Below, one piece after another: positions 6,694-41,377 of a stretch of 64,000 bases of DNA. Within the stretch, counting starts at the first letter, position 1. Each line of letters starts with the position of its first letter. This DNA is from Phycisphaerales bacterium. GTDB lineage: Bacteria > Planctomycetota > Phycisphaerae > WQYP01. The notes under the pieces are model-generated. The model did no database searches and was not told the origin of the DNA. It worked only from the letters and a program-made list of their open reading frames with translations. The stretch covers positions 31,404 through 95,403 of the forward strand of contig DAIDJN010000026.1 of NCBI GenBank assembly GCA_027451365.1, in the 5' to 3' direction. The translations under genes and the position numbers were made by a program.

Positions 6694-6708
6694 GAAGCGT
6701 TTCCCGCG

Positions 6709-9156: not shown

Positions 9157-9243
9157 CTATTGCCTGTTTCTGCGAATCATGTTTGTTTTAAGTTCGGCGT
9201 ACATTAATTTCATCCATACTGGCAATGCCGCATACGATGCGCA

Positions 9244-11478
9244 TCAGGCCGCTTTTGCCGGCGCAAGCTGATACCGCGAAAATGCCCGCGCCGCCAGCGC
9301 TTCGGCCGCCAGTACCGCCAGCGCCAGGTACAGCAGGTTGTGGCCGGCATTGCCGCCGCCGGCCGCCAGCGCCGGCTGTGCCGCCGCCAGCGATTTGGGG
9401 TTTTCCAGAATATTCGTCTGATGAATCCGCAAAATGGCCGCTACCCGAGCCGCGGGCGTATGCCGCACATCCGCCCAGCGGGCATCCACGTTGACCGCGG
9501 CGAGCGCCGGACTTCCAGCCGGCCCGTAGAGACCGGCGACTGGAATGGGCGGGCTTTGGAGTCGCGGCTGTCCGCCGATGAGTTTTCTGGTAAGGGCCAG
9601 TGAATCATGGCGAGGGCCAGCCCAGGTGCCGGCCGCAAAGTGGGTCGGCAGATTGAGTCTATCCCCCACCCGCAGATTCCGTGACGCTTCCCGATTGGCG
9701 AGCGTATAAAAGAAAAGCCGGTGCATATAGGCTGGAAACGCCGGCTGCGCGGGAAAATCTGTCCATTGCGTATCCGCACTGATGGCCCAAAGCAATACTT
9801 TGCCATGTCCGATGTTCCGCTCCACCAGCGCCGGGGCACCATTGGCGAAATAAAGCAGTGTGCGGGCCACCACACTGGCTTGCGGCCGCAGCACCACATA
9901 TTGCCGGGTCGCCACATCTGCCAAGCCGGTGTGTACACCGCTTTTTTCGGCGGCCAGAAATGCCGTTACGACCGGATTCATCGATCGTGAAAGATCAAAC
10001 CCCAGTGTGCGCCCTCCCCCTGCCTCGCCGGACCGGGTTACGGACATAAGCGAGCCGATCGCCGCGGGCAGCAAACCCTTGACACCGGCCCCCAGCGCAT
10101 CGGTCCATTCCATACCGTTGGTATCCGGCCCGGGGTAAATGATCAACAGGCCGCCCGCGGACACAAACTGCCTCAACCGGCCGGCCAGGCGAGGTCCGGG
10201 GGGCGGCAGATCGCTGAGAACGACTGATTGAAAATGTTTGAGGGATTGATCCGGCAGTTCCAGATCGCCAATTCGCGTCGGCTTGAAAATATTATTCCGC
10301 CGGAACGGGGCCAGCGCCGCACCCAGCCATGCCGTGCTCGCCAGACGGCCCGAAGCCGGATCACCCGGACGGCCGTCCACCAGCAGCACCGGAATATTCT
10401 TCACCGCGGTCGCCACAAATCGGCGGGTATTGTCCGCGGGCAAAGCATCTGGTGAAAGCCGGGCGGTAATCGCCAGTGGACCGGCCAGCGGAACCTTCTG
10501 ATTCAGCAGCGCTTCACCCGTTACCACCCGCCCCGGTGGAAGCGTGTGTAAAACGGTCTGGCCGGCCGGCGTGGAATTCAGGAAAAAACGCAGGACCACA
10601 TCATGACCAGCCGCGGCGGCCGCATTGAAAAGTGCGTATTTTACAGCCAGCGGCTGATTCACCAGCACTACGGGATGCCCCGGCTGTAAATCAGTAATGG
10701 CCATGTTTTGCGCCGAGCGATGGCCCACATCAATAATCCGCAAATGGGCGCCCAAGTGCCGGATCGCCGCCACCAGCGCCGCCAGCCGCTGGCGCAATAC
10801 AGAATGAGTTCCATCAATGGAACCGAAATTGTTTGCCGCGTCATCGGTTATCAACAGCACGGTGCGCGATCGGTTGCGGGTTTTGTTTTTCTTCACGATA
10901 GCCAGCGCCTGCTCCAGACCGGTCGTCAAATCTTCCCCGGCTTGCGACACCTTCTGATTCCGCACCTGCCCGATGAGCAGCGCCGACGGCAATTCGGGCC
11001 GAGGCGCCAGTGAAACGGCATTGTGCGACGCATTGATAATGGCAACGCGGCCAATGTCCGAATCGCTTTGCAGCCAGGCGATCAGCAGCCTTTTAGCGCG
11101 GTGAAACGGAGTGCTCCCTCCATGCGGATGCAGCCCCATGGGATAGGCATTATTCAGCACCACCACCGTCAGCCGTTGTGAATTACCCAGCAGCGGCGCC
11201 AAGGCTGCGCCAACCGGCGTAAACTGAGCAATGGCCGCCGCCAGCAGCAGCAGCGCCAGCACACGCAGCAAAAGCAGAAGCCAGCGTTGCATCTTGAGCC
11301 GCCGCACATTTCGCCGCATCGCGGCCAGCAGAAATTCCATCGCGGCCCAGTTTTTCAGCCTGAACCGCCGGCGGTTAAGCAGATGAATAACCACGGGAAT
11401 GGAAGTAGCCGCGGCCCCGGCGGCAAACAGCCACGGGGAAACAAACGGCAGCAGCGCCAGGGGGATATCCGGGTGCAA
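9244..11478 (-). CDS. BatA-like protein (aerotolerance-regulator N-terminal double-TM domain, degenerate VWA, GATase1-like domain)
   Basis: 744-aa ORF. N-terminus LALLPFVSPWLFAAGAAATSIPVVIHLLNRRRFR matches the BatA N-terminal domain pattern. RTVLLITDDAANN and IPVLLVDGRPGD motifs. TTG start with GGAGG about 11 nt upstream. Confidence 0.8.
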   Translation of the reverse strand: MHPDIPLALLPFVSPWLFAAGAAATSIPVVIHLLNRRRFRLKNWAAMEFLLAAMRRNVRRLKMQRWLLLLLRVLALLLLAAAIAQFTPVGAALAPLLGNSQRLTVVVLNNAYPMGLHPHGGSTPFHRAKRLLIAWLQSDSDIGRVAIINASHNAVSLAPRPELPSALLIGQVRNQKVSQAGEDLTTGLEQALAIVKKNKTRNRSRTVLLITDDAANNFGSIDGTHSVLRQRLAALVAAIRHLGAHLRIIDVGHRSAQNMAITDLQPGHPVVLVNQPLAVKYALFNAAAAAGHDVVLRFFLNSTPAGQTVLHTLPPGRVVTGEALLNQKVPLAGPLAITARLSPDALPADNTRRFVATAVKNIPVLLVDGRPGDPASGRLASTAWLGAALAPFRRNNIFKPTRIGDLELPDQSLKHFQSVVLSDLPPPGPRLAGRLRQFVSAGGLLIIYPGPDTNGMEWTDALGAGVKGLLPAAIGSLMSVTRSGEAGGGRTLGFDLSRSMNPVVTAFLAAEKSGVHTGLADVATRQYVVLRPQASVVARTLLYFANGAPALVERNIGHGKVLLWAISADTQWTDFPAQPAFPAYMHRLFFYTLANREASRNLRVGDRLNLPTHFAAGTWAGPRHDSLALTRKLIGGQPRLQSPPIPVAGLYGPAGSPALAAVNVDARWADVRHTPAARVAAILRIHQTNILENPKSLAAAQPALAAGGGNAGHNLLYLALAVLAAEALAARAFSRYQLAPAKAA

Positions 11479-11562: not shown

Positions 11563-12489
11563 CTATTTCATGCGGCTTTCGCGCGAAGCCAGAAAGCCCG
11601 GTAAAGACACATCCAGCGGCACGCTGGTGTCCACCTGCACGTAATCCACATGAAGCTGGTGGCAGGCGGTGCGGATTTCCTCCGTATGGCGGCGCAGTTC
11701 CTCCAGGTATGCTTCACGCAGAGCCTGAGGTTCGACAATAATTTCCGCCGGCGCCTCGATGCCCTTGAACATGGTGGTGGTGCGAAAAGGGAATTCCAGT
11801 TCCTCATGATCAAGCACCTGAAGCACGATCACATCATGCCGCCGATATCGCAAATGACGAATTCCTTTGATCATTTTCGCGGGATCATCAAACAGATCAC
11901 TGATGAAAATAATCAGGCTGCGGTGACGGACTTCCTCGGCCACGGCGTCTAAAATAAGCCCGGCGTCCGTTTTGGCATCGCCCACTGTGGTGGTCAGTTC
12001 ATCAATTAAAATGCGCCACTGTCGCGGGTTGTTGGATGGCCGAATCAGCCGCCGTATTTTGGAATCAAAAATCGCCAGACCCGCGCTGTCCTGCTGGTGC
12101 AGCGCCACATAGGCCATGCTTGCGGCAATGCTGATGGCATGGTCAAACTTTCGCCATTGCGGATTCGCCTCTCCGGCGAAGTTCATGGAAGTGGACGCAT
12201 CCACCACCAGCATCACCTGAAGATTGGTTTCCTCTTCATATTGCTTGATGTAATGCCGATCTGTGCGGCCGAATACTTTCCAGTCAATGTATTTGATGTC
12301 ATCGCCGGTGGAATAGGGCCGATGCTGGGCGAATTCAATTGAAAAGCCCTTGTACGGGGATCGGTGCATTCCGGTCACAAAGCCTTCGACTATCAGCCGG
12401 GCGCGAATATCCAGTGCGCCTATTTTGGCCAGCGTGCGCGGGTCAAGATACCGGCGGTAATCTGTTTTCTGCGCTTCGGGCGTGACCAT
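11563..12489 (-). CDS. DUF58 family protein (VWA-like, MoxR partner)
   Basis: 308 aa. The motifs HRSPYKGFSIEFAQHRPYSTGDDIKYIDWK and MLVVDASTSMNF (DxSxS) are classic for DUF58. It lies directly downstream of MoxR. Confidence 0.9.
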   Translation of the reverse strand: MVTPEAQKTDYRRYLDPRTLAKIGALDIRARLIVEGFVTGMHRSPYKGFSIEFAQHRPYSTGDDIKYIDWKVFGRTDRHYIKQYEEETNLQVMLVVDASTSMNFAGEANPQWRKFDHAISIAASMAYVALHQQDSAGLAIFDSKIRRLIRPSNNPRQWRILIDELTTTVGDAKTDAGLILDAVAEEVRHRSLIIFISDLFDDPAKMIKGIRHLRYRRHDVIVLQVLDHEELEFPFRTTTMFKGIEAPAEIIVEPQALREAYLEELRRHTEEIRTACHQLHVDYVQVDTSVPLDVSLPGFLASRESRMK

Positions 12490-20824: not shown

Positions 20825-22120
20825 TCAAACACCCGCATGATAAACCACATGGCCGCCTTTAATTGTATACCGCACCCGGCCACGGAGCGGCCGGCCGGCA
20901 AACGGCGTGTTGTGGCTGCGGCTTTGCGTGTTTTGGGCTGTTAAAGTCCAGATTTCATCCGGATTAAAAACTGTAATATCCGCCACCATTCCGCGCCCCA
21001 AAGTTCCGCGGTCGGTCCGGCGGATGATGCGGGCGGGATTCACCGTCATTTTTTCAATCAGCTTCAGCCAGGAAAGTTTTCCGCTGTGCACCAGCGCCTC
21101 GGCATACAGCGGTAGTGCGGTTTCCAGGCCGGTAATACCGAAGGGGGCTTTATCAAATTCCAGGTCTTTTTCTTCGCGGGCGTGCGGGGCGTGGTCGGTG
21201 GCCAGACAATCTATAGTGCCGTCCACCACGCCTTGAATACATGCGGCCACATCCGCCTGGCCGCGCAGAGGCGGGTTCATTTTAAAGTGCGTGTTATAGT
21301 CATTGCAGGCCTCATCGGTCAGCAGCAGGTGATGCGGCGCAACTTCCGCGGTGACTGCCTGTCCATTTTGGCGTGCCTGCCGCACAAGGTCTACCGCACC
21401 GGCGGTGCTGATATGCTGAACATGGTATCGAGCGCCAATGCGTCGGTTAAGTTGCAGATCACGGGCAATCATCAGTTCTTCAGCGACTGCCGGTATTCCG
21501 CCAAGCCCCAGCCGCAACGCGACCGTGCCGGCATTCATGGAACCGCCGCCAAGCGCAGGCTCTTCACAATGCTGACTGATTAAGGCATCAATCATTTTGA
21601 CATATTGCAGGGCCTTGGCCATGACCGCCGCGGAAGCCACACCCACACCATCATCACTGAAGCCAACGGCACCGGCTTCGTGCATCAGCATAATTTCCGC
21701 CAGCTCCGCCCCTTGGCGTCCCTTGGTTATCGCCCCGAAAGGAAATACATCACACAAGCCGGCCTTTCCCGCCTGGGTCAGAACAAATTCAATCTGTGTG
21801 TCTGTATCCAGTGCCGGCGTGGTGTTGGGCATGCAGCAGACAGTCGTGAATCCGCCGGCTACCGCGGCGTGCGAACCGGTGGCGATTGTTTCCTTATATT
21901 CCTGGCCCGGTTCGCGAAAATGAACGTGAATGTCCAATAGACCGGGCGAAACAAAGCAGCCTGCGGCATCCAACACACGGGCATCGGGCGCGGCCGTGCG
22001 CAAACCAGACCCGGCGGCGGCAATGTGCCCGTCCACAAGCAGCAGGTCCTCCTTGCGTTCCCGCAGGGCAATCGGGTCCAGAAGAGTGCCATTGATAATA
22101 AGAAGCTGGTCTGGATTCAT
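20825..22120 (-). CDS. pyrC: Dihydroorotase
   Basis: ORF 20825..22150. Motifs GLLDIHVHFREPG, DCLATDHAPH and FGITGLET. ATG 22120 (MNPDQLLIINGTLLDP) chosen as the start. Confidence 0.93.
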   Translation of the reverse strand: MNPDQLLIINGTLLDPIALRERKEDLLLVDGHIAAAGSGLRTAAPDARVLDAAGCFVSPGLLDIHVHFREPGQEYKETIATGSHAAVAGGFTTVCCMPNTTPALDTDTQIEFVLTQAGKAGLCDVFPFGAITKGRQGAELAEIMLMHEAGAVGFSDDGVGVASAAVMAKALQYVKMIDALISQHCEEPALGGGSMNAGTVALRLGLGGIPAVAEELMIARDLQLNRRIGARYHVQHISTAGAVDLVRQARQNGQAVTAEVAPHHLLLTDEACNDYNTHFKMNPPLRGQADVAACIQGVVDGTIDCLATDHAPHAREEKDLEFDKAPFGITGLETALPLYAEALVHSGKLSWLKLIEKMTVNPARIIRRTDRGTLGRGMVADITVFNPDEIWTLTAQNTQSRSHNTPFAGRPLRGRVRYTIKGGHVVYHAGV

Positions 22121-22716
22121 GGCTAAAAGTATACGAGACCTTGGCCCCAAGGGCGAGTATCGCGGTATGGCGTGGTGTGGCGTCTTTCATATTTGCGCCG
22201 CGGCCGGTAACCAAGGCTTTTGGAATAAGCCCGCCTGTATATGGTCCGCCATAATCGCAAACGCGCTCAAGAGGCGGCGTGGGTCAGTTCACTTAACCGA
22301 GCTGAACCAGTGGTTGAGTCTGCCAAAATGCCGGAATGTATTCACTTGTTAAACAGCCGGATGCTGTGCTTCGCAGTGTTTCGCCGTTTTTGGTTCGGGG
22401 CGCGGTTCGTCCGGTTTTGGCGAACCGGCGTGTTCGTCCATAACAGTTATAAAGGTGAACGTGGTCAATAAGGGCGGCGGGTAAAAAAAATGACCACCCC
22501 GGCGATCTTAAACGAACTGGCAATGCATCGCCCGCCTTGAACGAACCGCTTCGCTTGAACATGGGGTGCTGCGCTTCAAGTTTTTCTTCAGTATGGGCGG
22601 CGGGCGACGGTATCGGATGAATGGGCAGCAAAGAAGGTGCATTGACTTGGTAGGCCGCGGATGCCAGTGTATGATTCAAATTACCGAAGCAAGGTCGGCC
22701 TTTCTCAAGGCAGTTT

Positions 22717-23565
22717 ATGGTCGCACTGGATAAACAATTTGACCACCACCACGGCACCAAGCCGCGAAGTTGCGGCCGCTGGCGCAATAAGTCTTGGCAG
22801 GCTGGAAAAACTCCTGGTCGCCGGACCGCAGACAGCTTGTTTGCCCGTCGTGACGATAAATCCATTTCCTCCAATACCTCCTGTGCGAATGAAATAATTT
22901 ATTGCGGCTATCGCTTTGATCCCGAGACGCAGCTTTATTACGTCCGCAATCGGACCTACAACTCCGCACTTGGCCGCTGGATTCAACGTGATCCGATTGG
23001 GTACAAGGGTGGGATTAATTTGTATGGGGATGTGGAAGGCGGTCCGGCGGGGGCGGCGGATGCAACGGGTTTGCAGGTTTACATCGGCCCGGGATCGGGC
23101 TGGCCGCAAGGGTCGGCATCGGGGGTTGGGGCTTATACCCAAGAACTCCAATGGCAGTATATTCAATGGTGGCAAGAGGGAAATCAACTTTCTTCGGAAA
23201 TGATGTCGGGGTTTCTTTCGCAGCAGTTTGCCAAGACCGGCGATAACGCGGGTTTGGCTTTCGAGAAATTCGCTGGCGAACTGAAATCTGATCCACGCTA
23301 CCGCGCGGCGGCGCAGACGCATATTCAGCAAATGGCGATTAAATATGGCAAGCCCGGCGTATTCTTATTGTGGCCGAAAATTCCGCCGAAGGGAAAATTT
23401 TTCCTTTTGAAACTCAAGGCCACCAACGCACAATACGCCTCAAATTATTTCTTTGGCACTCCGTTGCCGCAATTTGCTGGCTCGCTCGGCGTGGCACATA
23501 TTGGATATCTGGGCGGTGTCATGATTATAAAAGGGTGCCCCGGGCACCTGCACTGGAAGGTTTAG
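22717..23565 (+). CDS. RHS repeat-associated core-tip protein with a variable C-terminal domain (orphan polymorphic-toxin module 1)
   Basis: 282 aa. NEIIYCGYRFDPETQLYYVRNRTYNSALGRWIQRDPIGYKGGINLYGDV is the terminal RHS core signature (YDxxTGLYY.R.RYYDP..GRF...DPIG..GG.NLY.Y). It is followed by DATGL and about 165 aa with no motif I recognise. No YD-repeat shell lies upstream. Confidence 0.75.
   Translation: MVALDKQFDHHHGTKPRSCGRWRNKSWQAGKTPGRRTADSLFARRDDKSISSNTSCANEIIYCGYRFDPETQLYYVRNRTYNSALGRWIQRDPIGYKGGINLYGDVEGGPAGAADATGLQVYIGPGSGWPQGSASGVGAYTQELQWQYIQWWQEGNQLSSEMMSGFLSQQFAKTGDNAGLAFEKFAGELKSDPRYRAAAQTHIQQMAIKYGKPGVFLLWPKIPPKGKFFLLKLKATNAQYASNYFFGTPLPQFAGSLGVAHIGYLGGVMIIKGCPGHLHWKV
22838..23035. 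repeat. RHS-core homology block, copy 1 (paralogous to 25569-25769)
   Basis: Hand alignment of 22860-23035 against 25594-25769 gives 21 mismatches in 176 nt. Similarity is looser for about 20 nt upstream. Divergence is abrupt after the block. Confidence 0.9.
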
Positions 23566-23571
23566 GCTGAA

Positions 23572-23727
23572 ATGATGGAAGGCAACTGGTACCACTATAT
23601 CAGCGACTGGTTTGATAATCAGGAGCCGGTCTATCACGCAGGGTACGTTCTCCAGGGCCAATTTGGTTTCAAGCCCTATTACCATCAAATGTTATGGTAC
23701 GATTCGTTCCATGGATCGCTTAAATAG
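23572..23727 (+). CDS. Aromatic-rich 51-aa microprotein, candidate immunity or partner of toxin module 1
   Basis: The ATG lies 6 nt after the module-1 stop. Translation: MMEGNWYHYISDWFDNQEPVYHAGYVLQGQFGFKPYYHQMLWYDSFHGSLK. It falls below the ORF-track length cutoff. No SD seen. Confidence 0.35.
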   Translation: MMEGNWYHYISDWFDNQEPVYHAGYVLQGQFGFKPYYHQMLWYDSFHGSLK

Positions 23728-23832
23728 GCGGGCACGTTAGATGGAAGCTGGGCGTTGTCCTGACGGTATTTCGGTTTTGCGCAAGCCACGGGAATCGCGT
23801 CTTGCCAGTCGCAATGTTTCCTTTGGAGGCAC

Positions 23833-24432
23833 GTGGTGAATACGACCGGTCCGGTTAACAGCCAGTCTGGAAAAGGTGAGGGTGTCGCCTCGGCACCTCG
23901 GTTTGGTGCTTCCATTTGGATAGCGTTTATACGAGTATTCAACATGATTCTGTGGGCGGCAATTATCTTTATCCTGATCCTGTCTGCCATGATGTCCGGG
24001 GCTGTTGTCTGGTGCCTCAACAACCGTGCCAAGGAGGTCGAAGTGGTGTCCGGCCAATACAGGGGGCGTATTGTGAAGGCTGAAATCTGTTGCGATGAAG
24101 TGCCCGTGGGCGACTGGGTGCCGCTGTCGGCGGGAACCGTCAGGCGGCTTAACGCGGCCGTTCTAGTGCCCCGCCCCTTGGAAACGACTATTGCGGGTGG
24201 TGAGACGCTTGCGTTGCGACTTGTTTTTGCCGACGGTTATACAGTTGACCTCCCGGCATATTTCGGCTATTCGGCGCTGTGGCTATTTGCAAACAATCCG
24301 AATGGGGTTTTTACGGCCCCGAGGTGCCGATCCTACGTTTGCGCCGGGCGTATGGAACTGCAACCATTGTCGCCCTCGCAGGCACGCATCGTGCAAAAAG
24401 TTCAGGACGAGACTGTCGGGCCGATATTCTGA
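23833..24432 (+). CDS. Single-pass membrane protein, hypothetical (candidate immunity)
   Basis: 199 aa. GTG start with GGAGG just upstream. TM helix IWIAFIRVFNMILWAAIIFILILSAMMSGAVVW. Same strand as the toxin modules. Confidence 0.55.
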   Translation: MVNTTGPVNSQSGKGEGVASAPRFGASIWIAFIRVFNMILWAAIIFILILSAMMSGAVVWCLNNRAKEVEVVSGQYRGRIVKAEICCDEVPVGDWVPLSAGTVRRLNAAVLVPRPLETTIAGGETLALRLVFADGYTVDLPAYFGYSALWLFANNPNGVFTAPRCRSYVCAGRMELQPLSPSQARIVQKVQDETVGPIF

Positions 24433-24506
24433 TTGATACCGAGCGGTGACACTGCCTGTGGGCTGATCGCCGCAATACTTAAGGCAATGTAAATGCTGGT
24501 TCAAAC

Positions 24507-25202
24507 ATGATCGTTAGCCACTGGGCGTTAATCGGGCGTTCCCTCCGCAGCACGGTGCTCACCGGCTTATTGGCGGCGCTGTTTCTGTTCAACGCATACA
24601 CCGGCTACACCAAATTCGACATTCGATTGGGCGAATTATTGCTGGCCTTGGCTTGGCCTTGGGTGGCCGCATGGGTGCTTCGCCGCCAGCGGGCCAAATT
24701 GCGGGTTAGTCTTCGGGCTGCAGTTGTAACATTGGCCGCCTTGAGCTCCATTTTGACCGCTGCTTTGACCGTCGCGGCGCTGGCGGCAAGATGCGTCGGC
24801 AAGGCGGCTGGATCGGGAGCCTCATCCGGGGCAATCTTGCTGCTTGGGAGTGCGGCAGGACTTTGGGTTGTGGGCTTAGGCCGCCGCAAGCCGATCGCGC
24901 CGACCGGCTTGCGTTCTTGGCTCGCCATGGCCGCGATACTCAATGCGGCGCTGATCGCTTTTCGATTGCCGCGGCTTTCCGCGGCATTGCTGGGCTATTT
25001 CATGTGCAGCGTGGCAATTCTTGCGACCGATCCCGCTGCACAAGTGGCCGTTGGATTGCGGAAGAAAATTCCGCACTGTCGCGTCCCGAGGCGGGTGCTC
25101 ACGCTATTGGCCCGTACTTGTCTGCTTGTGGTTTGCCTGATTGCGACGACAGCGATTTTCTTCATTCTCATCAATTTATTGAGTTATGATTATTCGTTAT
25201 GA
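24507..25202 (+). CDS. Multi-pass membrane protein, hypothetical
   Basis: 231 aa with about 6 hydrophobic helices (LTGLLAALFLFNAY, LLLALAWPWVAAWVL, VVTLAALSSILTAALTVAALA, LLVVCLIATTAIFFILINLL). Lies inside the RHS-tip island. Confidence 0.5.
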   Translation: MIVSHWALIGRSLRSTVLTGLLAALFLFNAYTGYTKFDIRLGELLLALAWPWVAAWVLRRQRAKLRVSLRAAVVTLAALSSILTAALTVAALAARCVGKAAGSGASSGAILLLGSAAGLWVVGLGRRKPIAPTGLRSWLAMAAILNAALIAFRLPRLSAALLGYFMCSVAILATDPAAQVAVGLRKKIPHCRVPRRVLTLLARTCLLVVCLIATTAIFFILINLLSYDYSL

Positions 25203-25423
25203 AGACCATTGCGGTTCAGGTGCGGCGTACAAAGGCGGAGTGTTCCAGCGAGTGCAAGTCTCGCCCCGGTAAAGGTTGTTGCGACTAGGAAGCTATCCAA
25301 GCGGAGGCGAAAGGAAAATCCATCTTCCGCAGTCGGCTGATTACCCCAGTTTGCCGACTGTTGCGCAATCTGGATTTTTTTGGCAACAGGCGACACATTT
25401 TCGGTACCCGGTCCGAGAAAATA

Positions 25424-25452
25424 TTTACCGCGAATTTGAATAAGGGTATAAT
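25424..25452 (+). promoter_or_regulatory. Candidate sigma70-like promoter for toxin module 2
   Basis: TTTACC (25424-25429), a 17-nt spacer, then TATAAT (25447-25452). The first in-frame ATG after it is at 25505. Confidence 0.4.
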
Positions 25453-25504
25453 CCAAGTTGGAACAGCTCGAAAAGGAATCGCGCGTTTGGTTGCAACTGA
25501 CGAA

Positions 25505-26278
25505 ATGTTTTCGGAATGCTTGCTTGCCAGCCAAAGCCCCCGGCGGCAGAATTGTGGTGCAGACATCCTGTCTGCCCGTCGTCCTCGCGATACATCCATT
25601 TCCTCCAATACCTCCTGTGCCAATGAAATAATCTATTGCGGCTACCGCTTTGATTCTGAATCGCAGCTTTATTACGTCCGCAATCGGACATACAACCCCG
25701 CCCTTGGCCGTTGGATTGAGCGTGATCCGATCGGGTATGCCGGCGGAATTAATTTGTATGGGTATGTGGGAGGTGGTTCAGCGTGCGAGACGGATCCGAG
25801 CGGCGAGTTGAGCGGTTTCTGGCGCTGGGATTTCTGTTTCGCTGCTTGCATAGACGACAACGACCCAATACATTTCATCCTCGCGCGGATACTGGCCACA
25901 CTGGCGGGCGTTCAGTTGCCGAAATCGTTTGTCGCGAGACTTGCTACTGCGGTGGGTGACGTTAAATTTGCGAATGCTCTGGGGAGGCCGATCGCGGGTG
26001 CATCTAGATTTACGACCATTCCGAGCGTCCTATCTCATCAACTGGAACTCGGAGGCCGCAATGTATTGCGAGCGTTTGGCCGCTTTGCCGCACCTTTTGA
26101 CGTGGCGTATGGGCTGCTGCTGGCGCAAGTCGAATCCTGGTGCGGGTATTACTGCTGTTCGCACACTGTGTATAATCCAACCACCGGAAATATTCTAGTG
26201 GATATTCGCAACGAGGGTTCGGCGAATTCCGGCTCAGACTCCGGGAGTGATTACAGTAACATGGTGGTGGTGCCCTAA
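25505..26278 (+). CDS. RHS repeat-associated core-tip protein with a variable C-terminal domain (orphan polymorphic-toxin module 2)
   Basis: The ORF is open from 25361. The ATG at 25505 follows the predicted promoter. NEIIYCGYRFDSESQLYYVRNRTYNPALGRWIERDPIGYAGGINLYGYV, then DPSGE, then about 155 aa unrelated to module 1 (hydrophobic, with a CGYYCC cluster). Confidence 0.75.
   Translation: MFSECLLASQSPRRQNCGADILSARRPRDTSISSNTSCANEIIYCGYRFDSESQLYYVRNRTYNPALGRWIERDPIGYAGGINLYGYVGGGSACETDPSGELSGFWRWDFCFAACIDDNDPIHFILARILATLAGVQLPKSFVARLATAVGDVKFANALGRPIAGASRFTTIPSVLSHQLELGGRNVLRAFGRFAAPFDVAYGLLLAQVESWCGYYCCSHTVYNPTTGNILVDIRNEGSANSGSDSGSDYSNMVVVP
25569..25769. repeat. RHS-core homology block, copy 2
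   Basis: See copy 1. It has the same reading frame and the same motif order. Confidence 0.9.
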
Positions 26279-26280
26279 CG

Positions 26281-26676
26281 ATGCAAATTGTGCCGCTCAA
26301 CATTGACTTTCCATTGCCCCGTAGCAGCATCGAACTGCCATTTTTCCCGAGTAAACGGCGCAATGTTCGATGGCTGATCCAAAGGCAATTGATCGCCAGA
26401 AATCCGCTGGATGTTGCATTGCGGTGGAGCCGGGCGGGCGAACTGGGCGGTTATCATGCGATTGTTGGCCCAATGGCGGCGGAATGTATGGGCTGGAAGA
26501 ACAGTCTTTTCGTGCCGGAAGATCCATTGAAGTTCATCCTTTATGAGAAATATAGCGTCGATACGGAGGCAGTTTCGTTCCTGACCAGAATTTATAAAAT
26601 ATTTAACGTACCAACCCCCGAAATGTCGGAGCTTTATGGCGAGTTTATCGCCATGCTTCGCCAATGCACCGCTTGA
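26281..26676 (+). CDS. Candidate immunity protein of toxin module 2
   Basis: 131 aa. The ATG starts 2 nt after the toxin stop (taacgATG). Soluble-looking sequence (…SELYGEFIAMLRQCTA). Preferred over the antisense 189-aa ORF because of this coupling. Confidence 0.55.
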   Translation: MQIVPLNIDFPLPRSSIELPFFPSKRRNVRWLIQRQLIARNPLDVALRWSRAGELGGYHAIVGPMAAECMGWKNSLFVPEDPLKFILYEKYSVDTEAVSFLTRIYKIFNVPTPEMSELYGEFIAMLRQCTA

Positions 26677-26806
26677 GGGTGAGAGCTCGCGCCAATGTTT
26701 GAACGCTCGATGTTGAGGATTAGAAAATATCTCAAAACAGTGTATCGATGCTGGCGGCGATACCACAATAATCCGCAGGCCAATTGAATGATGCCAAGGT
26801 AGTAGC

Positions 26807-27082
26807 ATGACTTTTTCGCTTACCTCACCAGAATGCCGCGGCATTTGCTCAGCCAGCCCGGAGTGCGTTCCACCTGACGCATGGACGCAGAAAATGGTGC
26901 CGGCCCAGTGGGCAGATGTTTTCTGGTTCGTAAATCCAGGATATTTATTTTTTGCTCCATTGAGTCACTCCATTAAAAGTTGTGGTTTTCAAGTCACTGT
27001 CGCGGTGGGCGTCGTGGCTGGTGCGGCGGTCGTCGTGGCTGTTTCTTTTCGGGCGAGACGCCCGACCCCCGAGGTGTTTTGA
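26807..27082 (+). CDS. Hypothetical small protein with a C-terminal hydrophobic segment
   Basis: 91 aa. VTVAVGVVAGAAVVVAVSF, then RARRPTPEVF. Its 3' end is the first copy of a 57-bp direct repeat. Weak support. Confidence 0.3.
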   Translation: MTFSLTSPECRGICSASPECVPPDAWTQKMVPAQWADVFWFVNPGYLFFAPLSHSIKSCGFQVTVAVGVVAGAAVVVAVSFRARRPTPEVF

Positions 27083-27090
27083 CCTGCGGC
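27034..27090. repeat. 57-bp direct repeat, copy 1
   Basis: Sequence cgtggctgtttcttttcgggcgagacgcccgacccccGaggtgttttgacctgcggc. Identical to 27362-27418 except for one base. Confidence 0.95.
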
Positions 27091-27361
27091 ATGTGTTTCA
27101 CTGAATTTAGCTGTTGATTCCATGCCTTCTGACGGGATATTGGCGGCGTATTCTGGTATGAAAGTTTATCCGCCTCCGCTGTGGTCTTTTACAACTAACG
27201 GCGATCAACGAACAGAAAAATAGAGTTCCCGCCAATTTGCTCATGGAAACAAAATATGTGGAATCTGTGGATTGGTTTATTCCGGTGCGTCTTTGTTTCG
27301 TGGTGATGACCAATGGCTTCCGGTTATGCGATATCCAGCGTCCTGGGCGGTGAACGCGGAC

Positions 27362-27418
27362 CGTGGCTGTTTCTTTTCGGGCGAGACGCCCGACCCCCAA
27401 GGTGTTTTGACCTGCGGC
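27362..27418. repeat. 57-bp direct repeat, copy 2
   Basis: Same 57-mer with G>A at one position. In the frame used by copy 1 there is a stop 9 nt upstream, so this copy is not the end of an ORF. Confidence 0.95.
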
Positions 27419-27773: not shown

Positions 27774-29603
27774 ATGTTTCGCAATTGTCTTAAGGGCCTG
27801 TTTCTAGTCATGGTGTCTGGTTTGTTTGCCGGGGCAAATGCCGCCGCCGCGCCGGCCTGGCATATGGTAAAAGGCCGCCTCACCACGCCGTGGGATAAAG
27901 ATGTCAACCCGGCGCACGACTGGGTGCATTATCCGCGGCCGCAGATGGTGCGCACTCAATGGAAGAACCTGAACGGATTGTGGCATTATTCGATTGTCGG
28001 CAAACATGCAGCCGAGCCGCGCCAATATCAGGGCCGGATTCTTGTGCCGTTTCCGGTGGAGTCCGCACTATCCGGCGTGGCCGAAAACATTGGTGCGGGC
28101 CAACAAATCTGGTATCAACGGACGTTTACGTTGCCGGCCGCGTGGAAACATCAACAGATTCTGCTGCATTTCGGTGCCGCAAACTGGCGGACCCGAGTGT
28201 GGGTGAATGGCCAAAAAGCGGGCAGCCACAAGGGCGGCTATGACGCGTTTACCTTCAATATAACCAAAGACCTTAAATCAAGTGGAACGCAACTCATAAC
28301 GGTAAGCGTGTGGAATCCGGTGGATAAGGGCCGGCAGCCCATCGGCAAACAGCGCCTGCATCCGGGCGGTATTTTCTACACCGCTTGCTCGGGTATCTGG
28401 CAGACGGTTTGGCTGGAACCGGTGCCTGCGGCGTACATCAAGTCCCTGCGAATTGTGCCACATGTGGATCAGGGCAATGTGACAGTCACCGTTCATGCCG
28501 CTGGTGGCACCGCGACGGTTGTGGTACTAAACGGCGCGCAACCGGTGGGTCACGTGACCGGCAAAGCAGGCCGGCCGCTTGTGGTGCCGATTCCTCGTGC
28601 CAAATTATGGTGGCCCAACCGGCCTTTTTTATACAATCTGGACGTAACCCTTAAATCCGATGGCAGAACAGATGAGGTACAAAGTTACTTTGGAATGCGC
28701 AAGATTTCGATCGGTCCGGACCGCCGCGGCGTGCTGCGCATATTGCTGAATAATAAGTTCGTTTTTGAGCGCGGCCTGCTGGACCAAGGCTACTGGCCGG
28801 ATGGAATATATCTGGCACCGACGGACAAGGCGCTGCGTTTTGATATTCAGGAAAGCAAGGCGCTCGGCTTTAACATGTGCCGCAAACACCAGAAGGTGGA
28901 ACCGGCACGCTGGTATTACTGGTGCGACAGGCTTGGTTTTCTGGTATGGCAGGACATGCCTGCGGCCTTTTACTCTAAAAAAGGACCATCAACCAAAGTT
29001 GAAACGCAATACCGTCATGAATTAACCCGCATGATCCAGCAGCACGAAAATGACACCTGTATCATTGGATGGACGCCCTTTAATGAAGGGTGGGGGCAGT
29101 ATGACACCCATGCCATCGTGGCCTTGATTCATCAACTGGATCCTTCCCGGCTGATTGATGATGCCAGCGGCTGGGTGGACAAAGGCGCAGGCGACATTCG
29201 CGATACCCACCACTATCCAACGCCTTGGTGCCGCCTGCCGGGAAAACACCGCGCTTCGATTGATGGCGAATTTGGCGGATTGGGCCTGGCGGTTCGCGGC
29301 CATTTATGGCAGAAGAAATTTTTTCAATACCAAGGTTTCAAAACGCCTCAGGCGGAACTGATTCGATTCAGGCAGCTTTGGCGCGAAGTCTGGGGCATGG
29401 AAAAGGATCCGGGGGTCATTACAGCCACGCCGGGCGTTGCGAAAACACCCTGGTGGGCCAAAGGGCGCGGAATGTCCGGCGCGGTGTATACGCAAACTAC
29501 AGATTGCGAAGGAGAAATTAACGGCATGATGACCTATGACCGCCGCGTTATAAAAATGCCGGTAAAAGCGGTAAACGCCGCTGTCAGAAACGTGAAGAAA
29601 TAG
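27774..29603 (+). CDS. Secreted glycoside hydrolase family 2 protein
   Basis: 609 aa. Signal peptide MFRNCLKGLFLVMVSGLFAGANAAAAP. GH2 sugar-binding signature ILLHFGAANWRTRVWVNGQKAGSHKGGYDAFTFNIT. TIM-barrel motif WTPFNEGWGQ. Confidence 0.85.
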   Translation: MFRNCLKGLFLVMVSGLFAGANAAAAPAWHMVKGRLTTPWDKDVNPAHDWVHYPRPQMVRTQWKNLNGLWHYSIVGKHAAEPRQYQGRILVPFPVESALSGVAENIGAGQQIWYQRTFTLPAAWKHQQILLHFGAANWRTRVWVNGQKAGSHKGGYDAFTFNITKDLKSSGTQLITVSVWNPVDKGRQPIGKQRLHPGGIFYTACSGIWQTVWLEPVPAAYIKSLRIVPHVDQGNVTVTVHAAGGTATVVVLNGAQPVGHVTGKAGRPLVVPIPRAKLWWPNRPFLYNLDVTLKSDGRTDEVQSYFGMRKISIGPDRRGVLRILLNNKFVFERGLLDQGYWPDGIYLAPTDKALRFDIQESKALGFNMCRKHQKVEPARWYYWCDRLGFLVWQDMPAAFYSKKGPSTKVETQYRHELTRMIQQHENDTCIIGWTPFNEGWGQYDTHAIVALIHQLDPSRLIDDASGWVDKGAGDIRDTHHYPTPWCRLPGKHRASIDGEFGGLGLAVRGHLWQKKFFQYQGFKTPQAELIRFRQLWREVWGMEKDPGVITATPGVAKTPWWAKGRGMSGAVYTQTTDCEGEINGMMTYDRRVIKMPVKAVNAAVRNVKK

Positions 29604-33813: not shown

Positions 33814-34938
33814 TCAGGCCACGCGACGGCGGCGGAACAGCAGGCACGTCAGGCCGATACCAAACAGACACAATGCCGCGGGTTCCGGCGTAACAGTGGT
33901 GAACTGGCCGTTATTGTAAGCAAGGTCTGAAGCGGTGGCGCTGGCACCGGCGTAACCAGACCCATACATATCTTCAATTGTTCGCAAAAAATTGTAATGA
34001 TTTACATTCTGATTGGATGTGCCGGCCTGAATCAGCGACGGGTCACCTGCCATGACAGTCAGAATCTGGTTGCTGGCTTCCACATAATCGTTTTCATCCC
34101 ACGTCACGATCAGCAGACTGTTGTGAGTTTTGGCCCACGTCACGTAGTTGGCCATCTGGGTTTTAAGAAAATTATCGGTATTGGCGATGCGGACCGCTGT
34201 TGAACTTCCGTCGTGGCCGTCGTCGATGGTGTTGGGAATGACCAGCGAAACCTTCGGCAAACTGGAAAAGTCCGTGCCCTGCCAGTTGACGTTGGTAAAA
34301 GGTTGATCCGCCGACAGCGGCAATTGATTCCCGGTTGGATTGGTGGCCACCCAATTCACCACGGGGTCATGCCGCCGGGCATAACCGGTGGTCATGGCCG
34401 CTCCGGTTGTGGCGTTATCAATGGTGCTGATATTGACATTGCCGTTGGAATCCACCGGCAGGTTCTCCGCATATTGGGTGAAAGACACATTCGCGGCGGC
34501 AAGCTCGGAGCCAAGGTTGGCACCGGTAAACGGAAGACTGGTGAAATTATTGAAATTGGTTGAACTGGGAAACGCATCGCCGCTGTAATTGGCACCGGGG
34601 CCAAAATTCAGCGGATTGGCGGCTGTACCGTTGGCATCGTTTATGCCCTGATTCCCACCGGCAAAAAAATCGAGGTAATTCGGCTGACTGGGATGTTCGA
34701 CACCATGGGAATTGGTGAAAACCAGAGCGCCGTTCAACAGTGTATTGTTGATGTAAGGCGCATCCGTGGTATCGCCAACGACCTGATCATAATTTGCGTT
34801 TTCCTCCATCACGACGACCACATGCGCAGGCTGGGGTATTCCGGCGGGAACCGATGCCCGCGTCTGTGCCGCCAGGCCGCCGACAACGGCAATAGCCGCC
34901 AGCGAAATAAATTGCGGAATGGATTTGCGTAAGCTCAT
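33814..34938 (-). CDS. Phosphoesterase-family protein (PLC / acid phosphatase-like) with a PEP-CTERM anchor
   Basis: Motifs VVVVMEENANYDQVVG and HPSQPNYLDFFAGGNQG. C-terminus VTPEPAALCLFGIGLTCLLFRRRRVA is a PEP-CTERM. Start ATG 34938 (MSLRKSIPQFISLAAIAVVG signal) has AAGGAG upstream. Confidence 0.8.
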   Translation of the reverse strand: MSLRKSIPQFISLAAIAVVGGLAAQTRASVPAGIPQPAHVVVVMEENANYDQVVGDTTDAPYINNTLLNGALVFTNSHGVEHPSQPNYLDFFAGGNQGINDANGTAANPLNFGPGANYSGDAFPSSTNFNNFTSLPFTGANLGSELAAANVSFTQYAENLPVDSNGNVNISTIDNATTGAAMTTGYARRHDPVVNWVATNPTGNQLPLSADQPFTNVNWQGTDFSSLPKVSLVIPNTIDDGHDGSSTAVRIANTDNFLKTQMANYVTWAKTHNSLLIVTWDENDYVEASNQILTVMAGDPSLIQAGTSNQNVNHYNFLRTIEDMYGSGYAGASATASDLAYNNGQFTTVTPEPAALCLFGIGLTCLLFRRRRVA

Positions 34939-35155
34939 AAAAACTCTCCTTGAAAACAACATACCCTTCCGCGGAGGGCAACTGGCTGCCAGTTGCGCCA
35001 AAATCCGGACCGGAAGTTGCATGATGCTCGCATGGGTTTGCTAATCCCTGATGAGCAAATGGTTGGTTAAAATTTAATTTTTAGAGCGCGCCAATTCGAC
35101 ATTGGCAATTGCGGCGAGCCTGTTGCATCGCCTTGAGAAGAAAGGATGCGCCGGT

Positions 35156-39671: not shown

Positions 39672-40330
39672 GCGAATTCCTCGGTCGACCCAAAATATTT
39701 GTGTTACCGGAAGCGGCCACTTTATCCCGCTTCACCGCGCCGCACAACCACACAAACGCGCACCTGACCGAGGCACCAAGCTGCGATGCAAATAGCGCGG
39801 AAACAATCTTGACGGTATCACTGATTTTGCGGATCCGCCTGGACTGGGCAATTTTTCATGGCCGCCTTGTTGCTGAGCTGCGTGAGCCGCAATGGCCAGG
39901 GAGTTCGCAGTTCATGTACAACGGCTGGAACCCCCAATAAAAGGCCGAATTTATGGCAAAATCTACCGAAGTAAATGTATCACGGTGAGGCGAGAGGAGT
40001 ATACTTTAATGCCAGTTCGGGCACTATGCAGGCATATCTTTCGATGGTTGCACAGTCGCACAAAACCCGAACAGAATTATTCCGCTTTTACGAATAAAAT
40101 CATAAACAAACGCCCCATAAACGAAAAATTGTCGATTTGCCGCTGAACCTCTAAAGTTTTTGCATCAATTGCAATATCGAAGCGTTAGAATCGGGGGAAG
40201 GGAGTTAATTCCCGGTAACCGAAACACTGAATCGGGTGTAGTACCAGACAGTGATAAAAATTTAGCTCGTAGCTGGCTGTGTGGGCCGGCTCGAGTGAAG
40301 CGAAAAATGATTGGATTCATGGAGAGCCTT

Positions 40331-41377
40331 ATGAACACGAGCAACCGTCGAACCGTGGCGCAAGAGTTTTTTTCTACCATCTCGGCCACCCGCGGCACCC
40401 AACGTGCTGGCGGTTTTACGCTAATTGAATTGCTGGTTGTGATTTCAATTATTGCGCTTCTTATTTCGCTGCTTCTGCCCGCATTGGCCACGGCTAAACG
40501 ACAGGCTGAAACCGTGGCATGTTCCAGCAATGAACGCCAGCTTGTGATTACGCTTCAGGAATATGTGCAAACAAACGACGGGTTCTTCCCGCTTAACGGC
40601 ATTCTGTTCCCGCATCCGGCAAGATATGCGCCATACAAGGGTGCGGGGGCATCTGATCCGCAAGATGCCGCCACTGCTCAAATCTGGAACAATACCCAAG
40701 ACTGGAAACTGACCTTCGGCGCGCTGTACCCGTTCCTCAGCAAAACACCCATGGGTCAATATGCCGCCGCGGCGGGAGGGACCAGTGGCGGAAGCGGATC
40801 GGGAACTGGCGGGACCGCAGCCGGTTCCACACCGCCAAGTCTAAATCCGGCGGTAAATTCCTTCGCCAGAATTTTCATGTGCCCGGCCGACTTGGGAAAC
40901 CGCACCAATCCTCAGGCCCTTACCATGTCCAGCAATTGGCAGACCGTGCAAGTGGGGCCGCAAGGCAGCGGCGGGTATTGGAGCTATTCGATCAATTCCC
41001 TTCTGAACTCGCAATCGGGAACGCTGACGGCTATTTTCGGCTCCAATCCAGATGGCACACCCGCCACACCGTGGGGTTACCCCATGCGGGCGGCCACGAT
41101 CACCAATCCAAAATTCGCGGTATTTCTTGAAGAATCCGCCACTAAATCGTCATTCAATGATGAAGTGCTTGACCCGCCGGCGTTTAATCCGACGGACAAA
41201 CTCACCACCCGACATGAAGGCGGCGGCAACATTGGCTTCTGGGATGGCCATGTGGAACTGGTCCCCGGCGCGGAATACAATAACGTTCCGCAGGTGGGCC
41301 AGGGCGCGGGTACGGTTACCGCAGATATCGCCATGGAACAGCCGGTCGTTCGCTGGTTCTTCCCCAACGGCCAATAA
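40331..41377 (+). CDS. DUF1559-type prepilin-like protein (type II secretion N-terminal cleavage/methylation motif, H-X9-DG C-terminal motif)
   Basis: GFTLIELLVVISIIALLISLLLPAL and the C-terminal HEGGGNIGFWDGHV. The ORF is open from 40160. ATG 40331 has GGAGAG upstream; ATGs at 40307 and 40319 are also possible. Confidence 0.85.
   Translation: MNTSNRRTVAQEFFSTISATRGTQRAGGFTLIELLVVISIIALLISLLLPALATAKRQAETVACSSNERQLVITLQEYVQTNDGFFPLNGILFPHPARYAPYKGAGASDPQDAATAQIWNNTQDWKLTFGALYPFLSKTPMGQYAAAAGGTSGGSGSGTGGTAAGSTPPSLNPAVNSFARIFMCPADLGNRTNPQALTMSSNWQTVQVGPQGSGGYWSYSINSLLNSQSGTLTAIFGSNPDGTPATPWGYPMRAATITNPKFAVFLEESATKSSFNDEVLDPPAFNPTDKLTTRHEGGGNIGFWDGHVELVPGAEYNNVPQVGQGAGTVTADIAMEQPVVRWFFPNGQ

Follow-up and report, generated by a model that had tools for sequence, protein, structure and literature searches.

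The window analysed here is a stretch of 64,000 nucleotides (nt) from the genome of a Phycisphaerales bacterium (positions 31,404-95,403 of the forward strand of contig DAIDJN010000026.1, assembly GCA_027451365.1). It contains an orphan-only island of 4.8 kb (22537-27327) with two Rhs C-terminal cassettes, located between the dihydroorotase gene pyrC and a gene for a glycoside hydrolase of family 2 (GH2), where profile matches to both flanks place it in agreement with the first-pass annotation of this DNA. The features of the island suggest, with a probability that we put at about 0.65, that it consists of lineage-specific orphan Rhs C-terminal cassettes that carry their own expression signals and are expressed alone; such cassettes would probably serve for immunity, as addiction modules of the toxin-antitoxin (TA) type and as a recombination reservoir. 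This interpretation is based on the anatomy of the cassettes, the absence of an Rhs shell from the window, the conservation of the start and of the promoter-like sequences, the selection acting on the Rhs tip, the co-variation of toxin and partner, and the occurrence of full-length rhs genes in relatives.

The main open reading frame (ORF) of each module, ORF1 and ORF2, matches the NCBIfam model for the RHS repeat-associated core domain (TIGR03696; cut-off 32.5 bits) with 61.3 and 66.5 bits, respectively, and in both cases the match is confined to positions 12-76 of the 76 positions of the model. No Pfam family was matched by either ORF, hence neither RHS_repeat nor the YD-shell was recognised, and the Rhs core retained in both comprises the final ~63 residues only; at first pass, too, just the last part of the core had been read from the sequence. 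Both ORFs, ORF2 with its residues 44-106, align to the last ~60 residues of solved Rhs/Tc cocoons, for example 8h8a (1090-1140 of 1152), Tse5 (1059-1120 of 1121), YenC2 (631-689 of 690) and TcdB2-TccC3 (2132-2190 of 2191). Two aspartates located 23 residues apart (D92/D115 in ORF1 and D80/D103 in ORF2) correspond to a pair that we take, from published structures, to be the catalytic residues of autoproteolysis. The tip ends with the DxxG[L/E] cleavage motif (DATGL in ORF1 and DPSGE in ORF2), before which the two ORFs are related (E 6e-41) and after which the remaining 155-165 residues are unrelated (E 2.7), again as described earlier. At the nucleotide level, the repeat 22828-23061 / 25559-25795 is ~85% identical.

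The Rhs shell was searched for by tblastn with the 2147-amino-acid (aa) full-length Rhs protein of a related metagenome-assembled genome (MAG; locus L008, 4256-10699), which carries the same tip. The only matches in the 64 kb were at 22885-23073 and 25619-25819, corresponding to query residues 1903-1969, and no full-length rhs gene is present within 22.7 kb upstream or 37 kb downstream of the island in the window. A Pfam scan of ~40 further ORFs of the window identified ordinary chromosomal and housekeeping genes, with no PAAR, VgrG, type VI secretion system, integrase or transposase among them, and no XerD-like tyrosine recombinase or integron integrase domain. The earlier statement that the window holds no shell, secretion or mobility genes thus stands.

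Comparison with protein and genome databases revealed that the two modules belong to a large family. Almost all of the best 120 protein matches to ORF2 have a length of 180-530 aa, and the named ones come from MAGs of Phycisphaerae/Planctomycetota; dozens of these 120 share the tip and the preceding 45-57 residues while their C-terminal domains are unrelated. The shared N-terminal sequences are MVALDKQFDHHHGTKPRSCGRWRDESWQAGKSPGRRTADILSARRPRDTSISSNTSC (ORF1 type) and MVATDEMFSECLLASQSPRRQNCGADILSARRPRDTS... (ORF2 type). A scan of the GTDB representative genomes with the tip gave 272 matches, for which 76 loci were fetched, all of them from Planctomycetota/Phycisphaerae MAGs, with at least 14 in JA4.bin8 and at least 13 in WY1.bin118. 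In a census of 159 tips in the window and 83 loci, which were chosen for containing a tip, nine tips belong to full-length ORFs (at least 1000 aa upstream; 2100-2480 aa in total), 28 are cut by contig ends and 122 are truncated fragments, here called orphans, so that in these loci orphans exceed full-length genes by roughly 13:1. The complete orphan ORFs extend for a median of 175 aa past the tip, and four of the 78 have less than 60 aa there.

The first-pass annotation had assumed that orphan modules normally lie directly behind a full-length rhs gene. This classical layout does occur in the lineage (loci L007, L009, L010, L018 and L060), but the rule fails there. Orphan-only arrays were found at L030, where seven cassettes lie ~2.2 kb apart, and at L048, L055 and L068, and each of the five loci retrieved by looking up an exact protein is an orphan-only island of 2-4 cassettes with housekeeping borders. 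The neighbours are GH88 and a histidine kinase in L077, a rhamnogalacturonan-lyase-like gene and exosortase genes in L078, GH35 in L079/L080, PolA and a K+ channel in L081, and LepA in L083. Since orphan-only islands are common between housekeeping genes in this clade, the shell-less layout appears to be its usual state. Full-length rhs genes of 2100-2480 aa with the same tip are present in related MAGs and fit the role of a reservoir, one of the two options proposed at first pass; the other, a class of short stand-alone Rhs-tip effectors, is not exclusive of it. We found no description of this pattern in the literature searched for Rhs in Planctomycetes or Phycisphaerae.

Two further observations concern the Rhs proteins of these MAGs. 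The N-termini of the full-length proteins are of low complexity (L008 4259-, L017, L022, L010 3890-, L060 4289-), with runs of 10-15 His after PNPNPN, ~50 Gly or ~20 Pro, and no known delivery domain, PAAR or other, was noted in them. At L003 (~6700-6800), L040, L053, L056 and L058 the tip is broken after 'YCGY' by a variable insert of 13-40 residues that leaves the frame open, as in CGY-PDTNRVSTDIETGLS-DPEAELYY.

Nearly all orphan ORFs begin with M-V-A-(L/I/V/F)-(N/D/A)-E-(K/Q/N), whatever the length of the Rhs fragment that follows. The common start, ATG-GTC-GCN-YTN-AAY-GAR (MVA[L/I]NE), has stop codons a short distance 5' of it. An MVA-type start in frame was found in at least 85 of the 122 orphans, and most of the others have the near variants MVSNAW, MVRNAD, MVTLNS, MVVADE or MLAINE. 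The Rhs fragment before the tip measures 6-485 aa in the motif-search set and reaches greater lengths among ORFs with variant starts, several of which, with MV-type variants, have 300-540 aa. Of the DNA motif [ATC]TGGTYGCNNTNAAYGAR, the loci contain 48 copies on the cassette strand and none on the other strand, and neither the start motif nor an MVALNE-like peptide is present in the full-length Rhs proteins of relatives.

Hexamers resembling -35 and -10 elements, the latter of the TAnAAT type, lie 35-45 nt upstream of the start in every leader family, often accompanied by a Shine-Dalgarno (SD)-like GAGG or GGAA. Both promoter-like sites of the window rank among the three best plus-strand matches in the scan of the region. 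The earlier proposal that module 2 has a promoter of its own is therefore supported as far as a conserved promoter-like site is concerned, although this is not a property of module 2 alone, as both modules carry one. In L078 and L079, the same leader is found behind a second kind of upstream sequence, TTGCAC-N17/18-TAGAAT, and starts with TTG; since different upstream types precede the same leader, the conserved coding unit begins exactly at the start codon.

The point of fusion of leader and Rhs sequence is variable with respect to both partners. Some relatives have a leader extended by ~45 residues (...SCVKFNNRQS...FIDHCSLIFERSA), which joins the Rhs sequence at DAYGNTLIF. In long leaders the Rhs junction is closely preceded by GGTTACA heptamers in tandem and by repeated palindromic motifs, TGATCA/CATTGATCA (L013 14-340, L058 9803-10130, L003 6496-6800 and L064 9767-10090), which look like non-coding or protein-binding repeats that are read through by chance. 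The leader does not represent the N-terminus of a full-length Rhs protein, as would be expected of a 'mini-Rhs' formed by internal deletion, because the full-length relatives start with MAANLNNCQ, MSYQPNNPY, MSKCPQPK or peptides like these.

The mode of evolution of leader and tip was compared in an alignment of seven related DNA copies of the ORF1-type unit. In the leader (57 codons) the variable sites are distributed 16/16/16 over codon positions 1/2/3, the ratio of nonsynonymous to synonymous substitution rates (dN/dS) is 0.62 and dS is 0.17, while in the adjacent tip (49 codons) the corresponding values are 12/8/31, 0.12 and 0.59. The tip is under purifying selection at the protein level even in orphan copies, and the leader is not. 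Nevertheless, in at least ten leader families that are unrelated to each other the frame from the start into the tip has stayed open, and a random stretch of 68 codons would be open in ~7% of cases (0.07 per family, our own estimate from base composition). In the simplest reading, the leader is a translated linker that merely supplies a start, and its similarity between copies has been kept by recent spread or exchange. As a structured RNA it is unremarkable, with folding energies of z +0.3 to -1.3 relative to shuffled sequences, and Rfam gave no family apart from an intron remnant in the spacer of the island. The protein sequences of P0024 and P0030 raised the idea that a compensated frameshift had occurred in their leaders, which was not adopted because a simple shift does not account for the codons. 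With leader patterns, no confirmed locus was obtained from the GTDB representative genomes, and the leader DNA pattern had no match in the JGI metagenomes. A profile search with the leader alone recovered two proteins, though at least 25 leader-bearing proteins are known in the same database; the word index seems to miss short Arg-rich queries, and absence in this search is thus weak evidence.

Several results weigh against the interpretation of the island given at the outset. The number of promoter-like sequences in the island (7) does not exceed that in shuffled sequences (4.9 +/- 2.3), and the promoter assignments are consensus matches supported by their conserved position only. The lack of codon bias in the leader could mean that it is untranslated or conserved for a role as nucleic acid. 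The longest run of identity between the two tips of the window is 28 nt, which is marginal for RecA-dependent exchange. CT2, the C-terminal domain of ORF2, has no recognisable fold or catalytic motif, and CT1, that of ORF1, belongs to no family. Finally, as the source genome was read within the window, a full-length rhs gene in the source organism itself is deduced from relatives only.

Module 2 appears to be an intact and convincing toxin/immunity pair, with a predicted immunity function for its second gene. The longest reading of ORF2 (25361-26278) has 305 aa, and the TTG at 25487 is both the start chosen by the gene caller (protein P0001, which begins MVATDEMF) and the start conserved in relatives. 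A HMMER search of 1.84 billion representative proteins assigned 90 clusters to the CT2 family (51 at E <= 1e-10), always at the extreme C-terminus and in most members after a DPxG motif. Some of the carriers are true Rhs-repeat proteins of 805-1440 aa, including P0128 (1440 aa), P0171 and P0183, a protein of 1177 aa in which DUF6531, eight RHS repeats and a YD shell precede a CT2 relative. The family is characterised by four invariant or nearly invariant cysteines arranged in two CxxxC pairs, and by conserved NDP, PK and E, and CT2 of the window has every residue that is invariant in the family. An AlphaFold2 model based on 32 sequences is confident and all-helical (predicted local distance difference test score, pLDDT, 84.9) and found no fold match in the PDB (best E 4.3). 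CT2 is on these grounds a putative toxin-type domain, unnamed and linked to Rhs.

The presumed immunity protein of CT2 has 131 aa. Homologues are encoded directly 3' of CT2 homologues in L083 (87% identity of the partner, 87% of CT2), L082 (32% and 45%) and L029 (25% and 40%). The divergence of the 131-aa protein thus tracks that of CT2, as a cognate immunity gene would be expected to do.

The spacer ahead of module 2 contains the degraded 5' part of a group II intron. The RF02003 score of this remnant (20.6 bits) is below the gathering score of 49, and RF00029 (D5/D6) has no match in the window. The segment 25222-25316 is 79% identical to L008 12016-12106, where a bona fide RF02003 match (12040-12177, plus strand, 85 bits, E 3e-19) lies just past the full-length rhs locus. 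A further RF00029 match, to intron domains D5-D6 (53.7 bits), is located at L048 7116-7195 on the minus strand, opposite to the cassettes and inside an orphan array. As only two matches at gathering level were found in 10 loci (145 kb), one of them antisense, group II introns are not a regular component of the cassettes; they seem to land in Rhs-tip loci now and then.

Module 1, on the contrary, appears to be damaged, its toxin having been partly lost already to a nonsense mutation. No homologue of CT1 was found in an index of 5.8 billion proteins, and the sole relative is encoded at L068 (36% identity over 131 aa, E 4e-18). The order of genes following it there is the same, with a match to the 51-aa ORF (46% identity) and then one to the 199-aa ORF. 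Translated L068 8259-8830 is collinear with CT1 plus the 51-aa ORF, and has Ser where the window has the TAG at 23563-23565; its own stops come 9 and ~50 codons later. Since a single continuous similarity is interrupted differently in the two loci, the ancestral CT1 must have had ~220 aa, and the 51-aa ORF is its severed tail. The ORFs listed at first pass (22717-23565, 23572-23727, 25361-26278 and 26281-26676, with gaps of 6 and 2 nt) were all recovered, and of the two small ORFs that had been regarded as partners, the 131-aa one co-varies with CT2 as expected, while the 51-aa one is, by its sequence, the tail of CT1 cut off by the TAG and not an immunity gene.

A better candidate for the immunity protein of module 1 is probably the 199-aa membrane ORF, which has no Pfam or NCBIfam match and is weakly conserved: a homologue occupies the same place 3' of the CT1 homologue of L068 (ORF 9078-9656; 24% identity, E 3e-4). 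The 231-aa ORF that follows, likewise without a Pfam or NCBIfam match, may be a second immunity gene or an accessory gene. Hydrophobic ORFs that resemble multi-pass proteins are found at the equivalent place in L068 and L083 and have no similarity to it. The first cassette of L079/L080 is preceded by a sequence with ~90% identity to the upstream unit of module 1, and this unit recurs in L081 and L077. The hairpin that covers the SD-like sequence is kept in all upstream units of this type A (L077, L079, L081) and could limit translation of the toxin ORF. The features of the island are listed in Table 1.

Table 1. Features of the orphan Rhs island and of its borders (positions in the window)
Feature	Position	Strand	Remarks
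pyrC (dihydroorotase)	20825-22150	-	Dihydroorotase models, E about 1e-143
Type A upstream unit of module 1, left end of island	22537-22716	+	Conserved in L079/L080, L081, L077
Terminator-like hairpin and T-run	22562-22578	+	Opens the module 1 upstream unit; terminator scan
Promoter-like site TTGGTA-17-TATGAT	22647-22675	+	Consensus scan
Hairpin GCCTT-TCTC-AAGGC over SD-like AAGG	22698-22711	+	AAGG 6 nt before the module 1 ATG
ORF1, ATG start, 282 aa	22717-23565	+	TIGR03696, 61.3 bits; leader, Rhs tip and CT1
ORF1 non-Rhs leader	22717-22884	+	Upstream of tip
ORF1 Rhs tip (D92, D115, DATGL)	22885-23073	+	tblastn to residues 1903-1965 of full-length Rhs
CT1	23074-23565	+	C-terminal domain of ORF1
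TAG stop, then in-frame 51-codon ORF	23563-23565; 23572-23727	+	ORF starts 6 nt past the stop, in the frame of ORF1
199-aa ORF, one N-terminal membrane helix	23833-24432	+	Candidate immunity protein of module 1
231-aa ORF, apparently multi-pass membrane protein	24507-25202	+	Long hydrophobic Ala/Leu-rich stretches, by inspection
Degraded group II intron, 5' part (D1-D4)	25222-25391	+	Spacer ahead of module 2; RF02003 at 25246-25391, sub-threshold
Promoter-like site TTTACC-17-TATAAT	25424-25452	+	Joint best score in island scan, 10/12 matches
Short 5' leader region of module 2 after promoter-like site	to 25486	+	Distance of promoter-like site to start as in other cassettes
ORF2, 263 aa from TTG 25487	25487-26278	+	TIGR03696, 66.5 bits; leader, Rhs tip and CT2
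ORF2 leader	25487-25615	+	Upstream of tip
ORF2 Rhs tip (D80, D103, DPSGE)	25616-25807	+	Last part of Rhs core
CT2	25808-26278	+	Unnamed family, C-terminal domain
131-aa ORF, presumed immunity protein of CT2	26281-26676	+	Starts 2 nt past the CT2 stop
Right-end element of island	26886-27327 (~440 nt)		Matches right end of L079/L080 island
57-nt direct repeat with GGGCG-AGA-CGCCC hairpin	27034-27090 = 27362-27418		98% identical; part of right-end element
GH2 glycosidase gene	27774-29603		Right flank of island, profile match

Based on these data, the following working of the cassettes may be proposed. A cassette comprises a promoter-like unit, its own start with a short non-Rhs leader, the ~63-residue end of Rhs, and a variable putative toxin domain with one or more presumed protective genes. 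We infer that each cassette is transcribed and translated alone, so that its immunity gene stays expressed and protects the cell from kin delivering the same toxin. Where the toxin is intact, as in module 2, the pair may be toxic and would also act as a TA-like addiction module that stabilises the cassette. The conserved tip of ~190 nt would provide the homology for recombining the cassette onto a full-length rhs gene elsewhere, thereby changing the delivered toxin. Module 1, with its toxin cut by the nonsense mutation, would be drifting towards an immunity-only state.

A more far-reaching version of this account is unlikely but deserves consideration. It assumes a portable unit of promoter, start (MVA[L/I]NE) and leader that is fused at arbitrary points to 3' fragments of rhs genes. 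The resulting autonomous cassettes, without a recombinase and in dozens per genome, would be collected in islands with conserved ends between housekeeping genes; they would loop out and re-enter by crossover at the tip, and would have a double role, as addiction modules and as a store of toxins for a small number of full-length rhs genes.

Another possibility, which we consider improbable, is that ORFs of 260-280 aa such as these are effectors delivered as stand-alone proteins without a cocoon, the tip serving only for autocleavage or for recognition by an unknown carrier. Such effectors would agree with the conserved start and the promoter-like sequences that the ORFs have of their own, with the intactness of most copies, with the selection on the tip, in which both catalytic Asp are kept, and with the large excess of short over long forms in protein databases. 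However, the N-termini of the ORFs have no signal peptide or hydrophobic segment, and the leader, unconstrained at the protein level, is therefore unlikely to be a targeting domain. The protease of the Rhs tip works inside the cocoon shell, and in solved structures the 63-residue tip ends a cocoon that measures from 600 to over 1200 residues. Moreover, no secretion genes are located nearby, and the same tips and CT2 relatives are found on full-length Rhs proteins, the known form of delivery. Thus, of the stand-alone class suggested at first pass, autonomous expression agrees with the start and promoter-like sequences, while the delivery of these ORFs as effectors stays unsupported.

The cassettes could also be inert debris, that is, decaying remnants of C-terminal displacement whose starts and promoters are there by descent only. 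The interrupted toxin of module 1 and of its L068 homologue, the evolution of the leader without codon bias, the dead piece of intron in the spacer and the lack of enrichment of promoter-like matches over shuffles are all consistent with decay. Debris is, however, hardly expected to show a dN/dS of 0.12 in the tip, to keep at least 60 aa past it in 74 of the 78 complete orphan ORFs, or to retain the start motif and an open frame across many unrelated leader families and MAG species. The invariant residues of CT2 are also all kept, and its partner is conserved in place down to 25-32% identity. We therefore give little credence to this explanation.

The ends of the island bear on the question of mobility. 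The right-end element is 83-92% identical to L079 11983-12455 and L080 11970-12310, where the island has other neighbours (GH35 and an RDD protein) and other cargo (three cassettes), and a piece of it is present at a contig end in L021 (11426-11529). Neither inverted ends or terminal inverted repeats nor a target-site duplication was found at the island ends. A possible small lipoprotein-like ORF (MSKLAGTLFFCSLIAVSC...) is located on the minus strand inside this element (~27107-27243). In a comparison of pyrC-GH2 synteny aimed at the empty site, the flank genes were present in none of the fetched loci, and the relatives of the GH2 gene in metagenomes have at most 50% identity and no pyrC nearby.

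These observations could be accommodated by an integron-like mobile system without a dedicated recombinase, in which X (upstream sequence, start and leader) and H (tip) function as direct repeats. Circles of X, H, C-terminal domain and immunity gene would loop out, and one crossover at H would suffice to insert them into any rhs gene or array; a larger mobile unit would be delimited by the conserved ends of the island. Looping-out and re-entry would explain why X precedes every displaced fragment and why the junctions differ. The position of X directly 5' of rhs fragments of every length, the variation of the junction on the leader side and on the Rhs side, the conservation of the leader as nucleotides, without codon bias (dS 0.17 vs 0.59 in the tip), and the recurrence of the same left and right ends at another chromosomal site (L079/L080) speak for it, and immunity arrays with repeats between their genes are already known from the rAID-1 regions of Bacteroidales (10.1101/471110). 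This system is nevertheless very unlikely in view of the lack of a recombinase, of terminal inverted repeats and of a target-site duplication, the lack of direct evidence for circles or movement, the ordinary folding of the leader as RNA or DNA, and the fact that homologous recombination leaves the arrival at new housekeeping sites unexplained. As an explanation, circulation of cassettes overlaps with that of orphan cassettes expressed alone, which we prefer.

Orphan rhs-CT/rhsI modules of Enterobacterales were reportedly described by Jackson in 2009 and Koskiniemi in 2014. Like these (see also Poole et al. 2011, PMC3150448), the modules of the window begin with a piece of the rhs core that includes the DPxGL region; a variable toxin domain comes next, and then a small immunity ORF. 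Both kinds are presumed to be born by C-terminal displacement and to serve as immunity repertoire and toxin reservoir. The enterobacterial orphans, however, adjoin full-length rhs genes, whereas the island of the window is at least 22 kb from any shell, and the window fragments carry a conserved start (ATG/TTG, SD-like), a non-Rhs leader and a promoter-like unit. The related orphan cdiA-CT fragments are reported to have in general no translation initiation signals (Poole et al. 2011, PMC3150448). In the classical reservoir model the homology for exchange with full-length rhs genes is provided as proposed here for the tip (PMC3150448). The window thus agrees with the classical orphan module in content and differs from it in position and in the presence of initiation signals.

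Rhs-CT/RhsI pairs of Salmonella Typhimurium are internally expressed and represent type II toxin-antitoxin modules (Starsta et al. 2020, PMC7043789). There, tip and immunity gene are expressed without the shell from a promoter just 5' of the DPxGL region, in main and orphan copies; comparable expression is predicted for the window, and selfish maintenance is suggested in both cases. In Salmonella, the P2 promoter and the CTG/ATG starts lie inside the conserved rhs coding sequence, while the cassettes described here have a separate non-Rhs unit with a variable join and their expression is predicted.

The recombinase-associated rAID-1 arrays of Bacteroidales, which belong to the acquired interbacterial defence (AID) clusters, contain a 5' XerD-like recombinase and mainly immunity genes (Ross et al. 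2019, 10.1101/471110). The island resembles them as a low-GC array of orphan immunity genes with intergenic repeats, away from toxin delivery loci; repeats between cassettes are indeed present, in the form of leader and tip within the island and of upstream units shared between islands. Unlike in rAID-1, a recombinase is absent, and the toxin ORF, which includes the Rhs tip, is intact in most cassettes. Lacking a recombinase, the island is therefore not rAID-like in the strict sense. Stand-alone C-terminal toxin cassettes that recombine with full-length toxin genes were also described for polymorphic toxin systems (Zhang et al. 2012, PMC3482391). The likeness lies in C-terminal toxin domains kept as separate recombining cassettes; the description given there is general, without a conserved autonomous start and leader or dispersed orphan-only islands. 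Orphan cassettes and their independent expression are thus already known and would not astonish a specialist. The new details are the portable start-leader unit, the ~13:1 excess of orphans and their dispersal in islands with shared ends.

The GC content of the island (53.3%) is lower than that of the window (56.4%). It lies ~1.9 standard deviations under the mean for segments of 4.8 kb, among which it is the lowest or close to the lowest (minimum 52.9%). The AT-richness that had been called visible is real but modest. The remaining genes identified by Pfam include a ClpB-like gene, a BatA/VWA/DUF58/MoxR set, an acetyl-CoA synthetase-GNAT protein, DksA, LacI, an NYN-domain protein, a metallophosphoesterase, UbiA/UbiX/UbiE, Acs, TatC, a rhomboid protein, an ABC/FtsX pair, LysRS, a PIN protein, an ATP-dependent ligase and MsrA. 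A PEP-CTERM-tagged phosphoesterase and a protein with an N-terminal methylation signal (pseudopilin-like) are encoded at 33814-35022 (minus strand) and 40160-41377 (plus strand), respectively, and exosortase EpsH/EpsI adjoins the Rhs-tip island at L078 12105-13978. PEP-CTERM, pseudopilin-like and exosortase genes are ordinary for the phylum, and are relevant to a search for export routes.

Orphan toxin/immunity modules are usually seen as silent leftovers behind a former host gene, and to our knowledge interbacterial toxin systems have barely been studied in Planctomycetota. In the lineage described here the leftovers far outnumber the complete genes, sit far from them and share a start and a promoter-like unit that classical orphans lack. 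If the cassettes are expressed, much of what is annotated as 'RHS repeat-associated core domain protein' in Planctomycetota MAGs would represent self-expressed pairs and not delivered effectors. The TA role of Rhs tips known from Salmonella would then extend to a distant phylum, by a different genetic solution, and new toxin and immunity domains could be sought with the start-leader unit as a practical marker, CT1 being without a family and CT2 unnamed. If cassettes do circulate in the way outlined above, this would represent a new route for the shuffling of polymorphic toxins.

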